From NCBI GenBank assembly GCA_964597925.1, contig CAZQZT010000001.1, forward strand, positions 13,629 to 77,628: a stretch of DNA of 64,000 nucleotides, read 5' to 3'. Both the position numbers and the translations under genes were made by a program. This document shows, in pieces, positions 2,439 through 60,806 of the stretch. Below the pieces are notes generated by a model. That model ran no database searches, was not told where the DNA came from, and worked only from the letters and a program-made list of their open reading frames with translations. The DNA comes from an uncultured Candidatus Saccharibacteria bacterium. Its GTDB lineage: Bacteria > Patescibacteriota > Saccharimonadia > Saccharimonadales > JBBQAJ01. Numbering within the stretch: the first letter of the stretch is position 1; each line of letters starts with the position of its first letter.

Positions 2439-2467
2439 ATTGACTTTTTAGGGAAAATACGGATAAT
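2439..2467 (+). promoter_or_regulatory. Sigma-70-like promoter for leader RNA plus tRNA-Lys
   Basis: TTGACT (2439-2444), 17-nt spacer, GATAAT (2462-2467). Confidence 0.5.
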
Positions 2468-2500
2468 GTAAGGAGTTAATTTCCCAATTGCCTATAGGGA

Positions 2501-2581
2501 AAAAAGCAGCTCGGCTTGGTTTGCTACGGCAAACTCGGCTTCGCCGACCGAGCAATGAGAAAAACCTTGGTTTGTCTCATT
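2501..2581 (+). ncRNA. Structured leader element, copy 1 (family of 5), ends 2 nt before tRNA-Lys
   Basis: AAAAAGCA, then P1 GCTCGG/CCGAGC enclosing hairpins GTTTGC-tacg-GCAAAC and TCGGC-ttc-GCCGA. A conserved terminal hairpin follows: AATGAGAAAAACC-tt-GGTTTGTCTCATT. Paralogs at 29287, 47118, 29667(-) and 29883(-). Confidence 0.55.
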
Positions 2582-2583
2582 AA

Positions 2584-2659
2584 GGGCCCATAGCTCAGTT
2601 GGTAGAGCAGCGGCCTTTTAAGCCGCGTGTCGCGAGTTCGAGCCTCGCTGGGCCCTCCA
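2584..2659 (+). tRNA. tRNA-Lys (anticodon UUU), CCA encoded
   Basis: Hand-folded cloverleaf: GGGCCCA / GCTC-AGTTGGTA-GAGC / GCGGC-CTTTTAA-GCCGC / GTGTC / GCGAG-TTCGAGC-CTCGC / TGGGCCC-T-CCA. Confidence 0.9.
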
Positions 2660-2705: not shown

Positions 2706-3569
2706 AGCTACGTTTAGAATGATTAATCCGACTGTACCGAGTACAGCGGCACCAATCTTAAACCAAAGCCACTCTTTTTCTTTTAAAACAAAGTAAGCAG
2801 ATAATACTACCAATACTGCCATAAAACTTGCAGATGCACCTACTAATGAAGCATTACCGCTCAATTTGAGTGCTCCTACAAAACACAAGCCTTTAAAAGC
2901 ATTAGTGATACCGTAACCCAGAATTGGCCAAAAGGTGGACTTGTCTTTCAGGATTTTAATATTGCGTCTTTCTGGCCAAGCAGCAATAGTCATCCACAGT
3001 GTCTGAGCACCCCATCCAAAAACAAGATAGGCCCCAAAATCTATACGAGTAAGCATCCAACGTTCAAACACAATTGCTAAACCCAATAAAGAAACGCTTA
3101 CCAAAGCAAAAGCTAGACCGCTAGAACTACTTGTTGAACGATGTCTTAGTCTTGGTAATGTTGCAAGGAAAGTTGAAGTTATGATAATTACTGCCCCTAG
3201 TTGCTGCTGGCTGTTTAATGTTTCATTCAATAGTATTGATGCAGCAACAATCGTGATAATTGGGGTTAAATTATTCAGTATTGTATAAAGTCCTGCGTCA
3301 ACATCCTTACTAGCTCGAAAAGCTAGTAAGTTTATCAGAGGAAAGACGCCACTTCCAATAAGCAGGATTAGCAGATTTTGCCATCCTATTGATAGATTGG
3401 GATTACTGAAAGATGCAACTATGAGACCAAGCGGATAGAGCACAACAATGAAAAAGAAGCCATTTATCAACCTATTGTGTTGCTTTAGGGTCGTAGCCAG
3501 TTTTCGTCGCAATAGATAGGCTGCAGTGCCCAGAATAAGGTATCCAGTTATTAATAATTGCCAAGTCAT
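2700..3569 (-). CDS. EamA/DMT-superfamily transporter (10 TM)
   Basis: 289 aa, strongly hydrophobic with a two-fold repeat typical of EamA domains. TGATATAGT sits 7 nt upstream of the ATG with no SD. Confidence 0.7.
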   Translation of the reverse strand: MTWQLLITGYLILGTAAYLLRRKLATTLKQHNRLINGFFFIVVLYPLGLIVASFSNPNLSIGWQNLLILLIGSGVFPLINLLAFRASKDVDAGLYTILNNLTPIITIVAASILLNETLNSQQQLGAVIIITSTFLATLPRLRHRSTSSSSGLAFALVSVSLLGLAIVFERWMLTRIDFGAYLVFGWGAQTLWMTIAAWPERRNIKILKDKSTFWPILGYGITNAFKGLCFVGALKLSGNASLVGASASFMAVLVVLSAYFVLKEKEWLWFKIGAAVLGTVGLIILNVAK

Positions 3570-3614
3570 TCATTAAACTATATCAGTAATTGTGAGTGAT
3601 GATGTTTGCTTTAT

Positions 3615-3658
3615 TTTAGTTGCAACAGCAATACATACGTCCCTCCAATAAGCTTATG
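3615..3658 (+). repeat. Cassette junction repeat a (tRNA-Lys 3'-end-like)
   Basis: TTTAGTTGCAACAGCAATACATACGTCCCTCCAATAAGCTTATG. It shares CCCTCCA plus AGCTTATG with the tRNA-Lys end and flank. Confidence 0.85.
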
Positions 3659-3793: not shown

Positions 3794-4780
3794 ATGAATA
3801 CATCGCAGAAAATTGTTCAATACATACAAGAACATGGCCAGGTAGCAGGGTCTGAGCTAGTAGATTATCTGACTATAACAGATCGTGCAGTGCGTAAACA
3901 ATTAAAGACTCTACTGGATAACGGTACAGTTGTTAAGGCAGGAAAACCGCCAAGGGTTTACTATTCTATCAACCGGGAAACAAGTACAGCCAATAAAGGT
4001 ATGGACAGGACTAAGTCCATAGACAAAATTACTCAACAGACCATTAAAGATAAATTCTTGTATATAACTCCAAGAGGATTGATGCTTGAGGGATTGGATG
4101 GATTCAACATTTGGTGTCAGGAAAGACAAATTGACCCTGTGAAGACTGCGTCCACTTACCAAAAAACTATGAATAAATATCTGAAATACAGAGAGCAAGA
4201 CCTTATTGATGGCATGTATAAGATGAAGTCAAGTTTCGAGGCAATAGCTCTAGATGAGGTTTTTTATATTGATTTCTATGCTATCGAGATTTTTGGCAAA
4301 ACAAAACTTGGACAGCTCCTATTGGTTGCCAAACAGAGCCAGAATAGGAAACTAATCAACGAGATAGCCGATATAATCGAACCCTCTGTACTAAAGATAA
4401 TTAGAGAATATAGCATTGACGGTGTGGGCTTTATACCACCCACAGTTAAAAGAGAGCTGCAACTTATACGGCAAGTTCAAAAAAGACTAAACTTGGATAC
4501 CAGAAAACTTGTTATCAATAAAGTTAAAACTCCAGTAGCTGTGCCACAAAAGACCCTAAATAAGATTGAGGATAGAATTACGAATGCCATGGAGACAATT
4601 GTAGTAGAGGGTAATGAAAGCTACGGCAATATTCTGCTTATAGATGATGCGGTTGGATCTGGCTCTACTCTTAACGAAACAGCTAAGAAGATCCGACAGA
4701 AGGGGCTCTGCAAGGGCAAAATTATTGGACTTGCAATTACAGGTAGTTTTAAAGGTTTTGAAGTAATAAGTGAGGTATAG
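3794..4780 (+). CDS. Winged-HTH plus phosphoribosyltransferase-domain protein (ComF/PurR-like architecture)
   Basis: The N-terminus (MNTSQKIVQYIQEHGQVAGSELVDYLTITDRAVRKQLKTLLDNGTV) looks like a wHTH. The C-terminus has NILLIDDAVGSGSTLNETAKKIR, a PRTase PRPP-binding loop. ORF track starts at 3776; ATG 3794 is preferred because of the -10 box spacing. Confidence 0.55.
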   Translation: MNTSQKIVQYIQEHGQVAGSELVDYLTITDRAVRKQLKTLLDNGTVVKAGKPPRVYYSINRETSTANKGMDRTKSIDKITQQTIKDKFLYITPRGLMLEGLDGFNIWCQERQIDPVKTASTYQKTMNKYLKYREQDLIDGMYKMKSSFEAIALDEVFYIDFYAIEIFGKTKLGQLLLVAKQSQNRKLINEIADIIEPSVLKIIREYSIDGVGFIPPTVKRELQLIRQVQKRLNLDTRKLVINKVKTPVAVPQKTLNKIEDRITNAMETIVVEGNESYGNILLIDDAVGSGSTLNETAKKIRQKGLCKGKIIGLAITGSFKGFEVISEV

Positions 4781-20634: not shown

Positions 20635-20643
20635 ATAGTGCTA

Positions 20644-20682
20644 ATTGTACTAGAGCTGGCACTCACATGTCAAGAGTGCTAA
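20644..20682 (-). promoter_or_regulatory. hrcA promoter with embedded CIRCE operator
   Basis: Minus strand reads TTAGCACTC-TTGACATGT-GAGTGCCAG (CIRCE-like, 20656-20682). TTGACA lies in the spacer, then 18 nt, then TACAAT (20644-20649). The ATG is 9 nt after the -10 box. Confidence 0.75.
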
Positions 20683-20756
20683 TAACGTTTAAGCAATTTT
20701 TGAAACCACCCATAAGGTACCTTGCCTAAGTGATGAAATTCTGAGCATAAAATATT

Positions 20757-28474: not shown

Positions 28475-29233
28475 ATGCAACATTTTCTACTACTATTTAT
28501 ACCTGGCGTCATAGGCGGCATGATAAATGCCATAGCCGGAGGTGGAGGTATCATTATGTACCCTGCGCTTTTAGCATTTGGTTTGCCACCTATCATAGCA
28601 AATACCACTAGTAGTTTTATAGTCTGGCCCGGCAGTCTTACTTCTGCCTACGGATATAGAAGAGATTTGCGGAAAGTTCCCAAAAAGTTTTTGTGGATGG
28701 CTGTACCTTCTGTAACTGGGTCATTAATCGGTGCCTATATATTGATACATACTCCTACTGCAAAGTTTGAGCAGATAGTTCCTTGGCTAATTCTTTCTGC
28801 TGTAATCTTGCTTGCCACACAATCACGCATTCATCGTTTCTTAATGAAACAAACCAAAAAGCGCAAAATTCACTGGCACACTATGCCGTTAATATTGCTT
28901 GCAACGTTTCCCCTCGCTGTTTATGGGGGTTATTTTGGCGCCGGTTTTGGACTTATGATGTTGGCCCTGTTGGGATTTTCTGGATTAAAAAATATATACC
29001 AGATGAATGGCGTAAAAAATCTTGTGGGTGCAACTATGGCCATGACGGCAACCATATACTTTTGGCATAACGGCATGGTTGATTGGTCTGCTGGTCTTAC
29101 TATGGCTTTTGGTACAGCAATTGGTGGTTTTACCGGTGCCCGTCTAACCAAAAAAATCTCTGCACATTTGGTACATGATTTGACAGTAGCAATCGGTCTA
29201 ATAATTGCCATCGTATTGTTGGTGAATTCCTAG
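28475..29233 (+). CDS. TauE/SafE (TSUP) family anion exporter
   Basis: 252 aa, 7-8 TM, GGGGIIMYPALLAFGLPP and GAGFGLMMLALL motifs. TAAAAT box ends 6 nt before the ATG. Confidence 0.75.
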   Translation: MQHFLLLFIPGVIGGMINAIAGGGGIIMYPALLAFGLPPIIANTTSSFIVWPGSLTSAYGYRRDLRKVPKKFLWMAVPSVTGSLIGAYILIHTPTAKFEQIVPWLILSAVILLATQSRIHRFLMKQTKKRKIHWHTMPLILLATFPLAVYGGYFGAGFGLMMLALLGFSGLKNIYQMNGVKNLVGATMAMTATIYFWHNGMVDWSAGLTMAFGTAIGGFTGARLTKKISAHLVHDLTVAIGLIIAIVLLVNS

Positions 29234-29259
29234 TCAACAGATACAAAACATGGTACAAT
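29233..29259 (+). promoter_or_regulatory. Direct repeat R2 / extended -10 promoter for leader RNA plus tRNA
   Basis: GTCAACAGATACAAAACATGGTACAAT with TGGTACAAT at 29251-29259. Starts within the TauE stop codon. Confidence 0.55.
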
Positions 29260-29286
29260 CACCCCTGTCTTCGACCTTCATTTAGG

Positions 29287-29368
29287 AAAAAGAATAGCTC
29301 GGTATGGTCTGCTAAGCAGACTCGGCTTTGCCGACCGAGCGATGATAAAAACCTTTGGTTTGTCTCAT
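29287..29368 (+). ncRNA. Structured leader element, copy 2, ends 5 nt before the tRNA
   Basis: AAAAAGAATA, then GCTCGG...CCGAGC enclosing GTCTGC-taa-GCAGAC and TCGGC-ttt-GCCGA, then GATGATAAAAACC-ttt-GGTTTGTCTCAT. The P2 stem shows a U-A to C-G swap relative to copy 1. Confidence 0.55.
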
Positions 29369-29373
29369 ACCAA

Positions 29374-29450
29374 GGCGGCATAGCTCAGATGGTTAGAGCG
29401 CAGGACTCATAAGCCTGAGGTCACTGGTTCGATCCCAGTTGCCGCTACCA
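29374..29450 (+). tRNA. tRNA with CAU anticodon (elongator Met or Ile2), CCA encoded
   Basis: GGCGGCA / GCTC-AGATGGTTA-GAGC / CAGGA-CTCATAA-GCCTG / AGGTC / ACTGG-TTCGATC-CCAGT / TGCCGCT-A-CCA. G1-U72 wobble and an A31-G39 mismatch. Confidence 0.85.
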
Positions 29451-29541: not shown

Positions 29542-29640
29542 CTAGGCGCTAATCAAAATCAAGCGTCTTGATTTGACACGACGTAGTTTCAGGTGTTTTC
29601 CACTTGATTTGTTGTACGGTGTGATGTCTTGTATTAACAC
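29542..29640 (-). CDS. Candidate 32-aa basic micro-ORF downstream of leader copy A
   Basis: Minus strand AGGAGG, 10 nt, GTG. Translation MLIQDITPYNKSSGKHLKLRRVKSRRLILISA. Below the ORF-track cutoff. Confidence 0.3.
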   Translation of the reverse strand: MLIQDITPYNKSSGKHLKLRRVKSRRLILISA

Positions 29641-29766: not shown

Positions 29767-29862
29767 TTAGTCATTTAGCATGGCATCTATTTGTAATAGT
29801 TGTTCGTCGGTTGTGGGTATTAATTCATACGCCAGTCCCCCATTAAGTGACAATACACTCAC
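29767..29862 (-). CDS. Candidate 31-aa acidic micro-ORF downstream of leader copy B
   Basis: Minus strand AAAGGA, 6 nt, GTG. Translation MSVLSLNGGLAYELIPTTDEQLLQIDAMLND. Confidence 0.3.
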   Translation of the reverse strand: MSVLSLNGGLAYELIPTTDEQLLQIDAMLND

Positions 29863-30043: not shown

Positions 30044-30306
30044 TGCTTCCTATCAGAACGAATGTTTGTGTTAAAGCTTCAACACTACGTATTATACATG
30101 ATGTTGCTTGTTTGTCAATATAGTTATACTTACTGCTTACACAAACTTGTTGCTTATGCACCTCTATTGTGCTTAAATACGCATGCAGGTTCCTTATCTG
30201 TTAGGTAACAGTTCGATATGTTCCTTGGTACATGGTGATCAGGCGTTCGATAGTTCGTTAGCAATAAGTGGTCGTACCTGATCATTAATAATAAAGGAAT
30301 ATATAC

Positions 30307-30612
30307 ATGTACAAATTATTTGTAGGTGGTTTACCTTTCAGCACAACCGATGATGAGCTAGCCCAAGTTTTTGGCGCTCACGGTACTGTAGCTAGCGCCA
30401 AAGTCATCACTGACCGCGACACTGGCCGTAGTAAAGGTTTCGGCTTTGTCGAATTCGAAAACGACGAAGAAGGCAAAACAGCTGAAAAGGAACTCAATGG
30501 AAGCGACATGGGTGGCCGTAGCATTACAGTCAACGAAGCGCGTCCAAAAGAGGATCGTCCTCGACGTGACTTCGGTGGCGGCGGTGGCGGCGGTGGAAAC
30601 CGTAGCTGGTAA
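30307..30612 (+). CDS. RRM-type RNA-binding protein with Gly-rich tail
   Basis: RNP2 KLFVGGLPF and RNP1 KGFGFVEF, C-terminal GGGGGGGGNRSW, 101 aa. Confidence 0.9.
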   Translation: MYKLFVGGLPFSTTDDELAQVFGAHGTVASAKVITDRDTGRSKGFGFVEFENDEEGKTAEKELNGSDMGGRSITVNEARPKEDRPRRDFGGGGGGGGNRSW

Positions 30613-31603: not shown

Positions 31604-31678
31604 CGCGGGGTAGAGCAGTGGCAGCTCGTGTGGCTCATAACCACAAGGTCGCAGGTTCGAGTCCTGCCCCCGCTACCA
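31604..31678 (+). tRNA. Initiator-like tRNA-fMet (CAU), CCA encoded
   Basis: CGCGGGG...CCCCGCT-A-CCA gives a 1:72 mismatch (C1/U72) and an A11:U24 pair. Close overall to the E. coli initiator as I recall it. The anticodon stem TGTGG/CCACA has only two G-C pairs next to the loop. Confidence 0.75.
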
Positions 31679-40652: not shown

Positions 40653-40728
40653 CTTTGTTTCCTTGTTTAGGAAGAGTAGTCTGCTGCGACTATACGATGA
40701 GAGACCCGCATGGGGTCTCTCATTATGA

Positions 40729-46853: not shown

Positions 46854-47102
46854 TTAGGATTTTTTAGAAGCTATCCAAGTCATAACTACCGCGGCAGCAA
46901 TCCACTGCGGAAAAATACCATACAAAGTATCACTCACTGAGTGCGAGTTACGATCCACCACTATAAAAACCGTTATCAAATAAGCAACGAATGGTATGTA
47001 TAGCAACCAGCCTTGCCAACTATTTGGTAAATAACTACCCCTTACTTTCACAAACCACTTATTAGATTTACGCTTTGTCATTAAGCTAAGTATACTCGCC
47101 AT
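46854..47102 (-). CDS. Small membrane protein (2 TM)
   Basis: 82 aa with two hydrophobic helices. Confidence 0.45.
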   Translation of the reverse strand: MASILSLMTKRKSNKWFVKVRGSYLPNSWQGWLLYIPFVAYLITVFIVVDRNSHSVSDTLYGIFPQWIAAAVVMTWIASKKS

Positions 47103-47117
47103 GTTTTATGTCTTACA

Positions 47118-47206
47118 GAAAGATCAGCTTGGCTTAGTCTGCGCCGTAGACTTGGCTTTGCTGACCGAGCGACTAGGAACCCACTTGGGTTTTCTCATGA
47201 CCTAGT
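47118..47206 (+). ncRNA. Structured element, copy 3 (orphan, between two minus-strand genes)
   Basis: GCTTGG...CCGAGC (U-G wobble), AGTCT-gcgccgt-AGACT, TTGGC-ttt-GCTGA (two wobble pairs). The terminal hairpin is remodelled: ACTAGG-GAACCC-actt-GGGTTTTC-tcatga-CCTAGT. Confidence 0.45.
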
Positions 47207-49352
47207 AGTAGTACCAGCGGTCAATTCCTCTAGAATTAGTAACGTCCCTAATTTTTACCGGTTCACCACCGTCAATACTTATGGCATAATCAGCTGTTTC
47301 TTGGTCAGATTTCACTCTGTATACCAAAACACTGTCACTCAACCAGCTAAGCGGGTAGCCCAATCCACTTTGACTGCGCAAGTTCACGTCTTTTTTGTCT
47401 GTTAGTTCATATTTTAGTAACACGCCTTTGCCATCGCGGCTATCTACCCATGCACTATATTTGTTTGCTGGATTGTTGATATAAACTCTAGATGTTTGAT
47501 TGGCTGGAGCGCTGTTGAGCTTGGTTGGCACTTTGGCACCGAGTTGGTAGTCATACCATAGCTGTTGAACTGACAGCGCAAAATGGTCAAAGCTTGTTCT
47601 GAATATATTCCATACTTCTTGGTCAAAAATAGTCTGCTTGTTGCTGCCGTCTGCACGAATTTTATAAAAACCGCCTTTTTCCGTTTGGTAGGCGCTAGAC
47701 GTAGCGTAATAAATAGACCCGTCGGCAGCAATTACATCGTTAAAATAGTTGCTACTAGCAAGCTCTGTATTTTTGGAATCTTTGTAGTTGTAGCTCATCA
47801 GACGATAGCGTTTTGGACTATTGGCGCTACTACCTGCTGCAATCTGCACATAAACTAAATTATCATCAATCCAGTCCACTATTTGAATACGCTCTGAAGC
47901 CACAATATTTGTGGTGCTGGAATCTTCTGGATGTATTAGTATCAGGTTGCTCATTACAAAGCCGTCGCTGTTTTGCAAGCCGGCTCGAGTAGAAACATAT
48001 GCTACCAAGTCTTCTTTGGGATGAGCGACCAGCACCATATCGTCTTTTTCTTTTCCGCTTCCAGCAAGCAAAAGTTTTTCTTCTTTGCCGTCAATATATA
48101 CATTATATATGTCATATTTGCCAGAGCGTTTTGATACAAAAACTTGCTTGCGTGCTGGTACTAACTTTACGTCATGATTCGATTTGTCATCAGGATCTAT
48201 GGTTACTATTTCTGTTCTATAGCCTTGGCCCTTTATGCTGACGTCAAATTTCTGATCATTTAAAGCATCTATGGTTAGTTTTATATTGCCTTTGTCGTCT
48301 GAGATTGCATTGGCTACGTCACTACTGGCTTCAACCTTTGTAAGTGGTTTGCCAGACAGAAATTCTGTAATAGTAAAGCTGTATTGTGTACCTGTTGGTG
48401 TAAGACTAAATTCACCTAGCGGATTGCTTCCCAGGCCAACTACTACGGCTTGACTAATTTGTGCAAAAGCTCTCTTTTCTATTATAAGTTCGCTTGAACC
48501 TAGTTTTATTTTTTTCAACTGCACTTTGCCTTCTTCGTCAGTGACACTTTTTACATTGCCTATAGTGACATTTACGTTTTTTAGGGGCTGGTTTGTGCTT
48601 TGGTCTAGCACTACAGCTGAACTGCTAGCTCGCACCCCCGCTGTATTTAGTAAAAAGTACCGAGAGGTGGGCATTACTGCAGCTACAATAGCGCTTACTA
48701 GAAATAATAAGATTACTGCCCATCTATGTGCAGGTTTTACCCACCAAGCTTTCAGAGTTTTAAGTAAACTTTTTCTAGGTTTTTTTTCTGGTTTTACTGG
48801 TTCGTCCGTATCACGTACGGCATCTTCTACTTCTAGGAGTTCATCGCCCTCGGCAGCAATAATTTCTTCTACCGCCTTGTCGGTACTCGGGTCTGCCAAA
48901 ATAGCTGGATCTTCTAGGGCAATATCATTTGCGACTGGCTCTATAGGTTCAATCTCTTCTTTGGTTTCGTTTTTTGGTTTTTCTAATGGCTGTTCCAGGG
49001 GTACATTGGCAGCCTTCTTGTCTAAGTCGGCTGTAGCTTCGTCATGATGTGAAATAGGTATTATAACTTTTTGGGAATTTTTGGATTCTGCTGACTTGAC
49101 ATCATTTTTTTTAGATGGAAGTTCTGGAGCAGAAGGTAGCAGATCTGTCTTTGATTTCAGGTGAACTTTAGCTTCATCTTCAGTGGGAGCTGAAACGGAC
49201 TGGATTTCAATGTTTGTTTTAGCTGTGGCAGATTTGGCTACTGGGGACGTTACTGGTTCTTCAGGAACAGCCGGATCTAGCAGGCGCTTTACCCGCACTT
49301 CAATATCATCGCTTCGGGGATTTAGGTCCTCAGTACGCTCGTCATGACTCAT
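47202..49352 (-). CDS. Large surface protein: disordered N-terminus, TM, Ig/carboxypeptidase-regulatory-like repeats and a beta-propeller-like C-terminus
   Basis: 716 aa. TM WAVILLFLVSAIVAAV. The C-terminal half has repeated DG-x-x-I-x-Y/F strands reminiscent of TolB/PD40 propellers. Function unknown. Confidence 0.55.
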   Translation of the reverse strand: MSHDERTEDLNPRSDDIEVRVKRLLDPAVPEEPVTSPVAKSATAKTNIEIQSVSAPTEDEAKVHLKSKTDLLPSAPELPSKKNDVKSAESKNSQKVIIPISHHDEATADLDKKAANVPLEQPLEKPKNETKEEIEPIEPVANDIALEDPAILADPSTDKAVEEIIAAEGDELLEVEDAVRDTDEPVKPEKKPRKSLLKTLKAWWVKPAHRWAVILLFLVSAIVAAVMPTSRYFLLNTAGVRASSSAVVLDQSTNQPLKNVNVTIGNVKSVTDEEGKVQLKKIKLGSSELIIEKRAFAQISQAVVVGLGSNPLGEFSLTPTGTQYSFTITEFLSGKPLTKVEASSDVANAISDDKGNIKLTIDALNDQKFDVSIKGQGYRTEIVTIDPDDKSNHDVKLVPARKQVFVSKRSGKYDIYNVYIDGKEEKLLLAGSGKEKDDMVLVAHPKEDLVAYVSTRAGLQNSDGFVMSNLILIHPEDSSTTNIVASERIQIVDWIDDNLVYVQIAAGSSANSPKRYRLMSYNYKDSKNTELASSNYFNDVIAADGSIYYATSSAYQTEKGGFYKIRADGSNKQTIFDQEVWNIFRTSFDHFALSVQQLWYDYQLGAKVPTKLNSAPANQTSRVYINNPANKYSAWVDSRDGKGVLLKYELTDKKDVNLRSQSGLGYPLSWLSDSVLVYRVKSDQETADYAISIDGGEPVKIRDVTNSRGIDRWYYY

Positions 49353-60550: not shown

Positions 60551-60806
60551 ATAAAAACCCTCGCTCTCCGGGAGCAAGGGTATGAATGTCTTCATTGCTC
60601 CTGCTCGGGAGACTTTACCTGCTGTATCGGGCTTTAACCGTTGCGGCACAGCGCGAGAATTACACTCACTTCCAGCATTTTTTATTAAAAAGAACTTATT
60701 TAGAGTGTACCACAACCCTGGCTACGCTATATGTAGTATTTTTAGAAGATATTTTTATACTATGTGTGCTTTTTACCATATATCGACTCTTATCATAAAG
60801 TTTCTG

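Follow-up and report, generated by a model that had tools for sequence, protein, structure and literature searches.

A conserved structured RNA module in tRNA leaders of Candidatus Saccharibacteria, apparently one of a large family and possibly of insertion type

Introduction

What kind of element lies directly 5′ of two tRNA genes of an uncultured Candidatus Saccharibacteria bacterium, and why would it sit there? The stretch analysed, referred to below as the window, comprises 64 000 nt (GenBank assembly GCA_964597925.1, contig CAZQZT010000001.1, positions 13 629–77 628 of the forward strand), and an earlier note on it described two copies of a structured RNA element, one before tRNA-Lys and one before a CAU tRNA. 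Saccharibacteria are a major, mostly uncultured and epibiotic lineage with very small genomes. Tens of copies per genome of a deeply conserved RNA module are unexpected baggage there, and the siting of the module 5′ of tRNAs, rRNAs and ribosomal-protein genes heightens the surprise. The two tRNA-leader copies (copies 1 and 2) apparently belong to a large, Saccharibacteria-wide and undescribed family of ∼77 nt structured RNA modules. The explanation that we favour, with about an even chance of being right, is a sense-oriented, insertion-type structured RNA passenger that would reside in the discarded parts of highly expressed transcripts.

Materials and methods

Model R1 was built from four sequences of the three-way-junction type described below (three from the window and one from locus L009) and covariance model R2 from 95 homologues. 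L-numbers designate homologous loci from genome and metagenome scans; the metagenome set was chosen by means of a sequence pattern for the terminal hairpin, P2. The census of 143 copies comprises the copies among the matches listed, and totals for the family are lower bounds. Genomic contexts were assigned by simple rules.

Results and discussion

tRNA-leader copies

Copy 1 (2496–2581, + strand) ends with its P2 hairpin at 2581 and tRNA-Lys(UUU) begins at 2584, leaving a gap of 2 nt. Copy 2 (29283–29368, +) ends in a terminal TCTCAT at 29368, 5 nt before tRNA-Met(CAU), which begins at 29374. The tRNA coordinates thus bear out the fusion to tRNA 5′ ends, and the two gap lengths, given in the earlier note. 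The copies are 88% identical. RNAfold returns the architecture that had been proposed, an outer helix (GCUCGG/CCGAGC) with two inner hairpins followed by a terminal hairpin with an A·G mismatch, at z-scores of −4.4 and −3.9 for copies 1 and 2, and none of 200 shuffles is as stable. The difference between their first inner hairpins (GUUUGC/GCAAAC and GUCUGC/GCAGAC), read earlier as compensatory, is a genuine double, pair-preserving change. A core 20-mer has three matches in the window against 0.00 expected, which excludes a chance repeat.

The promoters that had been suggested upstream of both copies hold up as sigma-70-like sites, with 10 of 12 and 9 of 12 matching positions, and the promoter sequence of the copy 1 unit (GATAATGTAAGRAGTTATTTYCC) is common to the orthologous tRNA-Lys leaders in L046, L025, L049 and L125. 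Both copies are firmly predicted to be transcribed from a sigma-70-type promoter within the 5′ leader of a tRNA precursor. The tauE–tRNA-Met arrangement of copy 2 is not conserved among relatives, so that an orthologue for a synteny comparison was lacking, and L010, which carries an orthologous unit of element and tRNA-Met(CAU), was used instead. The tRNAs at 31604 and 35223, said earlier to lack related leaders, indeed have no copy of the element near them. Three tRNA(CAU) genes lie inside 6 kb [29374(+), 31604(+) and 35223(−)], with the element on just one; they are presumably the initiator, elongator Met and Ile2 species.

Distribution of the family

A pattern search and the two covariance models locate six copies in the window, not the two of the earlier note. 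All six share the purine tail and the terminal hairpin, while the middle domain varies from copy to copy; none of the four additional copies adjoins a tRNA. Beyond the window, a metagenome scan with the P2 pattern gave at least 120 loci, nearly all of them true members, a scan of a genome collection with the core pattern gave three (L003, L009 and L010), and covariance-model hits above 40 bits number at least 137. A scan of viral contigs with the P2 pattern returned only five chance matches in coding regions, and carriage by phages was rejected.

The carriers point to Saccharibacteria. The window LepA shares 84–87% identity with proteins annotated as Candidatus Saccharimonadales or Saccharibacteria, the labels of L003 and L009 read Saccharibacteria or Saccharimonadales, and the YchF encoded at an element-bearing locus of 56% GC is nearest to Candidatus Saccharimonas proteins; element-bearing loci range from 35 to 58% GC. 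L010 (DATKKU010000037.1) is labelled Candidatus Binatia. It is probably mis-binned, because it has 47% GC and a true element with a tRNA-Met unit of Saccharibacterial type.

The comparison with Rfam that the earlier note had called for leaves the element without a name: Rfam 15 does not match it with gathering thresholds or with a cut-off of E ≤ 10, the hits being confined to tRNA, rRNA and an AdoCbl-II riboswitch. The motif sequences were not found in the literature searched. A survey from 2024 that covered insertions in rRNA across the candidate phyla radiation says of 64 of 66 Saccharibacterial ones only that they are short and uncharacterised (PMC11270868).

Conserved structure

The consensus consists of a 5′ tail (AAGGGAAAAGAGCAGC), a variable domain P1 of 28–45 nt and a terminal hairpin (GCGAUGAGAAAAACC-GUAG-GGUUUGUCUCAU), in which AUGAGAAAAACC and GGUUUGUCUCAU form the conserved 12 bp hairpin P2. 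The tail is invariant, single-stranded and 14–16 nt long. Its 5′ boundary is sharp, with conservation beginning at −4 relative to GGAAAAG and none further upstream. Across the 95 homologues, paired cells amount to 96.4% and the covariation score is 0.36, compared with 0.11 for shuffles (0 of 500 reach the observed value) and at most 0.075 with slid partners; the genuine structured RNA family suspected in the earlier note is thereby substantiated. P1 covaries strongly, one pair reading CG 44, AU 32, UA 11 and GC 5 times. P2 is nearly invariant within the pattern-selected set. Copies detected by the model only include compensatory variants of P2 (UUGAGA/UCUCAA, ACGAGA/UCUCGU, AAACCCC/GGGGUGU and GAAGGAAAACC/GGUUGUCCUUC), and in some of them the A·G mismatch is replaced by a G–C pair.

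The three-way junction and the duplicated CTCGG that the earlier note described in copies 1 and 2 represent a minority variant of P1 and not a family trait: the junction of copies 1–3 occurs in 12 of the 143 copies. Each P1 subtype is seen in every major context, and orthologous tRNA-Lys leaders share their promoter and differ in P1 subtype.

Alternative pairings do exist in the sequence, either through the duplicated CUCGG of copies 1 and 2 or through the tail (GGGAAAAG), which could compete with the 5′ arm of P2 for its 3′ arm (UUUGUCUC). They would suit a riboswitch or attenuator, as would the position of the element in 5′ leaders and 5′ untranslated regions (5′UTRs). Such a device is exceedingly improbable. 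With the tRNA beginning only 2–5 nt beyond the element, an expression platform would not fit, and a terminator scan found no intrinsic terminator 3′ of P2 in copies 1 and 2. The majority type lacks the CUCGG duplication, and the positions of the alternative pairings are invariant and therefore provide no covariation support.

G·U cells (31) far outnumber A·C cells (6) on the tRNA-bearing strand, which identifies this strand as that of the RNA. The count argues against a functional opposite strand, whose transcript would act as a 3′UTR or terminator element for convergent genes. That idea is recommended by 13 of the 143 copies, which lie directly against a convergent open reading frame (ORF) at its stop codon, and by the reverse complement, whose final GC-rich stem leads into UGCUCUUUUCCCUU. 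The terminator scan flags no reverse complement of a window copy, so that its role as an intrinsic terminator was rejected, and copies 1 and 2 have no minus-strand gene to terminate. We give the opposite strand only a minimal probability.

Small ribozymes typically combine a conserved core with a peripheral stem that varies, as the element does, and the element is multi-copy and adjoins mature 5′ ends in diverse contexts. A new small self-cleaving ribozyme, cutting at one of its boundaries and separating itself from the downstream RNA, is nevertheless very unlikely: even at E-values up to 10 the ribozyme models of Rfam give no match (hammerhead, twister, pistol, hatchet, HDV-like and other classes), a hammerhead-type core is missing (GCGAUGAG lacks the stem II/GAAA arrangement that would come after it), covariation lends no support to a pseudoknot and the operon copies described below are translated.

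Several further candidates were rejected. By inspection, none of a hammerhead-like core, a box C/D-like motif, boxA, anti-Shine–Dalgarno pairing and an internal promoter fits; the sense strand has no boxA-like sequence (UGCUCUUU...), the resemblance to boxA being limited to the tail in reverse complement (GCUGCUCUUUUCCC). A small protein gene is incompatible with P1 lengths of 30, 31, 33 and 41 nt and P2 loops of 4 or 5 nt, which break the frame, and the tRNA-leader copies cannot code. A general helix P0, formed by upstream pyrimidines with the tail or by GCUC/GAGC, is found in tRNA-Lys leaders and a few other copies and is not above shuffles. A tRNA-like cloverleaf is not called in the element by ARAGORN or RF00005, which report real tRNAs only. 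One copy in a 16S–23S spacer [L024, 3553–3628, within 3530–3650(−)] folds, with its flanks, as a four-arm cloverleaf having an acceptor-like stem and a D-like arm (GCUC/GAGC, loop AGGAAAAA). This model fold hints that the element might have a tRNA-like origin.

Sites occupied by the element

A same-strand tRNA begins 1–15 nt downstream of 43 of the 143 copies, with 18 anticodons represented, and 43 of the 76 tRNAs in element-bearing loci are preceded by the element. Opposite-strand tRNAs follow only two copies, compared with the 43 on the same strand, which amounts to a strong orientation bias. A TAnAAT box is located 15–45 nt upstream in 18 of 39 copies of the tRNA class versus 2 of 32 intercistronic copies. 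Six copies lie 3–11 nt before the 23S 5′ end and five lie 2–14 nt before 5S. At least 13 of the 143 are inside 23S genes, at E. coli positions ∼270–370, 543–553, 1162–1220, 1704–1769 and 2200–2223 as located by BLAST against E. coli rRNA; the last four of these sites we take to be helices H25, H45, H63 and H79, known positions of intervening sequences or variability. Some 34 copies precede sense ORFs, mostly ribosomal-protein genes, whose products we take from their N-termini to be S10, L4, L23, L2, S3, S17, L14, L11, L10, L7/L12, S4 and S13. The genes of EF-Ts and SSB also lie 3′ of the element, as does hrcA in a relative of the window genome. A tRNA-specific module, as the earlier note had it, is not compatible with this range: the same element precedes 5S and 23S, lies within 23S helices, at ribosomal-protein junctions and in a heat-shock 5′UTR, and stands alone near convergent genes.

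Pairing of the flanks around the element characterises rRNA contexts, being seen in five of five copies before 5S and in copies inside 23S; L077 has a flanking duplex of ∼30 bp. There is no enrichment of flanking stems in the tRNA or ORF classes, and a stem around every copy was rejected, since it holds in rRNA contexts only.

Some individual loci show further peculiarities. At L031 (Ndh-like protein) and L056 (DnaB), the terminal UCUUAUG of P2 provides the AUG of the downstream gene, and GGAGG or GUAGG in the loop or 3′ arm of P2 lies at Shine–Dalgarno distance from that AUG. L046 (137–330) contains an element, a 5′ fragment of tRNA-Lys (GGGTCCATAGCTCAGCTGG), ∼100 nt and then a complete tRNA-Lys, an arrangement that may represent a duplication or an insertion in a tRNA gene. 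The 23S gene of L024 carries, at E. coli position ∼293, a further 145 nt insertion that is not the element.

Polymorphism and flanking sequences

The junctions of the S10/spc operon that carry the element differ by locus (L3–L4, L23–L2, L22–S3, S17–L14, L29–S17, before L23 and before S10), and junctions that carry it in some loci are contiguous or overlapping elsewhere. Where the element is present, the Shine–Dalgarno...TAATG junction is duplicated on both sides of it. Bridging ORFs of 33–41 residues occur in 16 of 25 operon copies; each runs from the old ATG across the element to a stop on the true start codon. Because the bridging ORF ends on the start of the next gene, translational coupling is preserved. 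Flanking direct repeats of 12–35 nt accompany about 12 of 142 copies, far above shuffled controls. Copy number also varies among relatives: three with LepA 86–89% identical have 0, 0 and 3 copies in ∼20 kb each, and one of these three, at L144, separates the CIRCE operator from the hrcA start codon, a place without a copy in the window. An insertion-type element, which the earlier note had not considered, is suggested by the patchiness, by the duplicated flanks and by the bridging ORFs.

In the window [20640–20700(−)] and at L144 (18620–18680), the hrcA promoter has CIRCE-like inverted repeats (TTAGCACTC-N9-GAGTGCTAA) overlapping it. A different intercistronic repeat of ∼115 nt, unrelated to the element, is present in two ∼90% identical copies at L23–L2 and S17–L14 of L028 (∼410–527 and 4407–4521).

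Origin and role of the element

The favoured passenger would occupy those segments of the most highly expressed transcripts that are discarded or that tolerate extra sequence, namely the leaders of tRNA, 5S and 23S, apical variable helices of 23S, stop/start junctions of ribosomal-protein operons and 5′UTRs. Copies 1 and 2 would be discarded when RNase P makes the tRNA 5′ end, as inferred from the universal pre-tRNA pathway. Insertion into an operon would duplicate the Shine–Dalgarno/stop–start junction, with a short read-through ORF keeping translation coupled. The tail, P1 and P2 are under selection at the RNA level. This selection presumably serves the propagation of the element itself, its removal without harm or the two together, and a benefit to the host, such as processing punctuation, would be secondary.

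A number of observations speak against this explanation. The flanking duplications affect just ∼10% of copies, vary in length and include unexplained filler. Terminal inverted repeats are absent, the ends AAGGGAAAAGAGCAGC and GGUUUGUCUCAU not being complementary, and no transposase or reverse transcriptase was identified, although no search for a mobilizing enzyme was made. Enrichment at genes of the translation apparatus could mean function and not tolerance. Orthologous tRNA-Lys leaders keep the element in at least five species, and ∼45 nucleotides are nearly invariant across loci of 35–58% GC; both facts would suit a host function at least equally well. In the metagenome set, which was selected through P2, the conservation of P2 is overstated.

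Such a host function might be cis-acting punctuation of processing or stability. An endonuclease of the RNase III, Mini-III or RNase Y type would read the tail and P2, or the fold would block a 5′-to-3′ exonuclease, and either action would define or protect the 5′ terminus of whatever tRNA, rRNA or ribosomal-protein mRNA follows. The element's position 1–15 nt before mature tRNA, 5S and 23S 5′ ends and 10–30 nt before ribosomal-protein start codons agrees with this, as do its extreme sequence conservation, its retention in the tRNA-Lys leaders and the closing stems of the rRNA copies before 5S and inside 23S. Yet tRNAs already have RNase P, the spacing between element and tRNA varies, presence at a given junction is patchy between species, the operon copies are translated through and the tRNA and ORF classes have no flanking stem. 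Orphan copies (3, 6, L003 and L009) moreover have nothing downstream to process. Punctuation explains the conservation and the siting at mature 5′ ends better than insertion does, and the patchiness, the read-through ORFs and the orphans worse; we regard it as the leading and a serious rival, although less probable than insertion.

A further candidate is a trans-acting small RNA or protein sponge that would be freed from precursors (by RNase P at the tRNA copies) in proportion to stable-RNA synthesis, with the tail as its binding surface. Units of promoter and element with no downstream gene (copy 3, L003 and L009), the invariant unpaired tail of 14–16 nt and the several promoter-driven copies per genome would be expected of such an RNA. 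A complementary target was not found in sequence checks, the tail is not complementary to the anti-Shine–Dalgarno sequence, P0 pairing is not enriched, and many copies are intercistronic and translated through or embedded in 23S. Nor is there a linked partner protein: the gene of an RRM protein adjoins copies 4 and 5, is absent near every other copy and was rejected in this role. A small RNA or sponge is thus improbable.

An even more novel entity is conceivable, although unlikely: a bacterial mobile RNA of unfamiliar type (non-autonomous, SINE-like or reverse-splicing-like, integrating in the sense orientation into the transcripts of greatest abundance or the most heavily transcribed DNA) or a new catalytic or nuclease-guiding punctuation RNA with which Saccharibacteria would excise stable RNAs and ribosomal-protein mRNAs from precursors.

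If the element is selfish, it would represent a new style of insertion element, without inverted repeats, sense-only, with long variable duplications and read-through ORFs, and it would account for the 'short uncharacterised insertions' reported from rRNA genes of Saccharibacteria. A functional element would add a layer, specific to this lineage, to the processing of stable RNAs or to the control of expression. The covariance model is suited to RNA family databases and to annotation; otherwise, wrong annotations are likely for the read-through ORFs and for the insertions in 23S.

Relation to known elements

The intervening sequences (IVSs) in 23S rRNA of Salmonella, Leptospira, Coxiella and others, and the short Saccharibacterial rRNA insertions (PMC11270868), resemble the family in that some of its members lie inside 23S variable sites. 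The flanks of these 23S-internal copies form closing stems, as in IVSs, and the distribution is similarly patchy. Unlike IVSs, the module also occurs in tRNA, 5S and 23S leaders, ribosomal-protein junctions and 5′UTRs, its structure is not merely a long duplex but includes a conserved hairpin and an invariant tail that is single-stranded, and all six window copies are outside rRNA.

ERIC/IRU, Correia (NEMIS), REP/BIME and Rickettsia palindromic elements (RPEs) are likewise short, multi-copy, non-coding, structured, patchy and transcribed within operons, and RPEs are also tolerated inside expressed genes, here by the in-frame read-through of the bridging ORF. In contrast to these dispersed repeats, the element has neither terminal inverted repeats nor a short fixed target-site duplication, is oriented almost exclusively in the sense direction, prefers the 5′ side of stable-RNA and ribosomal-protein genes, and combines helices supported by covariation with an invariant unpaired motif. 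As in MITE, Correia and ERIC elements, copies are many and differ between relatives (six in 64 kb, with polymorphic operon junctions); a short target-site duplication of fixed length was not found, the duplications of about 12 of 142 copies measuring 12–35 nt and being separated by filler. With regard to a SINE-like retroposon, duplications of variable length are seen in ∼10% of copies and not in the rest, and the purine-rich tract is at the 5′ end and not the 3′ end.

Phage T7 RNase III sites and mitochondrial tRNA punctuation share with the element the repeated placing of conserved structures between functional RNAs or cistrons of polycistronic transcripts. The element differs from them in being redundant beside real tRNAs, translated through in operons and variable between species. 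Like the small RNA 3′ETS of leuZ in E. coli (from the 3′ external transcribed spacer), it would be released from a tRNA precursor by tRNA-processing nucleases; it is, however, a 5′ leader and not a 3′ trailer, multi-copy and not tied to tRNAs.

Further copies and neighbouring features in the window

The window features are listed in Table 1. Copy 3 differs from copies 1 and 2 by C-to-U changes that yield G·U pairs on the + strand, and its 3′ end is 3 nt from the stop codon of a convergent 716-residue ORF (47202–49352, −). The same distance of 3 nt separates the 3′ end of copy 6, the short form, from the stop codon of a 65-residue ORF that is also convergent. The tail of copy 5 pairs with its 3′ flank UUCCC.

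Table 1. The six copies of the element in the window, with associated promoters and tRNA genes
Feature	Position	Strand	Description
Sigma-70-like promoter, copy 1/tRNA-Lys unit	2440–2467	+	TTGACT-16-GATAAT, 10/12 match
Copy 1, 5′ tail AGGGAAAAAAGCAGC	2496–2510	+	Invariant, mostly single-stranded purine motif of the family
Copy 1, P1	2509–2553	+	Three-way-junction variant; outer helix 2509–2514/2548–2553, hairpins 2519–2534 and 2535–2547
Copy 1, P2 hairpin AAUGAGAAAAACC-UU-GGUUUGUCUCAUU	2554–2581	+	Contains A·G mismatch
tRNA-Lys(UUU)	2584–2659	+	2 nt 3′ of copy 1
Promoter-like site, copy 2/tRNA-Met unit	29231–29259	+	TAGTCA-17-TACAAT, TG-extended, 9/12 match
Copy 2	29283–29368	+	Three-way-junction P1 variant; 104 bits with R1, 42 bits with R2
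tRNA-Met(CAU)	29374–29450	+	5 nt 3′ of copy 2
Copy 5	29743–29665	−	In tandem with copy 4; 55 bits
Copy 4	29958–29882	−	Majority type; P1 is a AAAAUGUAUUCCAUUUU hairpin; 78.6 bits
Promoter, copies 4/5	30091–30118	−	Perfect TTGACA-16-TATAAT, 12/12 match; ∼130 nt upstream of copy 4
Copy 6	40667–40725	+	Short form; P1 cut to UAGUC/GACUA, P2 a perfect helix; 24 bits
Copy 3	47112–47200	+	Three-way-junction type; no tRNA downstream; promoter-like site 47067–47096

Two small ORFs without a Pfam match accompany the tandem copies. One of 31 residues with a Shine–Dalgarno sequence lies directly 3′ of copy 4 [29767–29862(−)], and one of 32 residues, very basic and preceded by the Shine–Dalgarno sequence AAGGAGG, directly 3′ of copy 5 [29542–29640(−)]. 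The RRM-domain RNA-binding protein mentioned above has 101 residues and a glycine-rich tail, and its gene [30307–30612(+)] is divergent from the promoter of copies 4 and 5. Elsewhere in the window, an AdoCbl-II (cobalamin) riboswitch aptamer is located at 60614–60689(−) with 41.7 bits against a gathering score of 36.5, which is unusual in a reduced Saccharibacterial genome.

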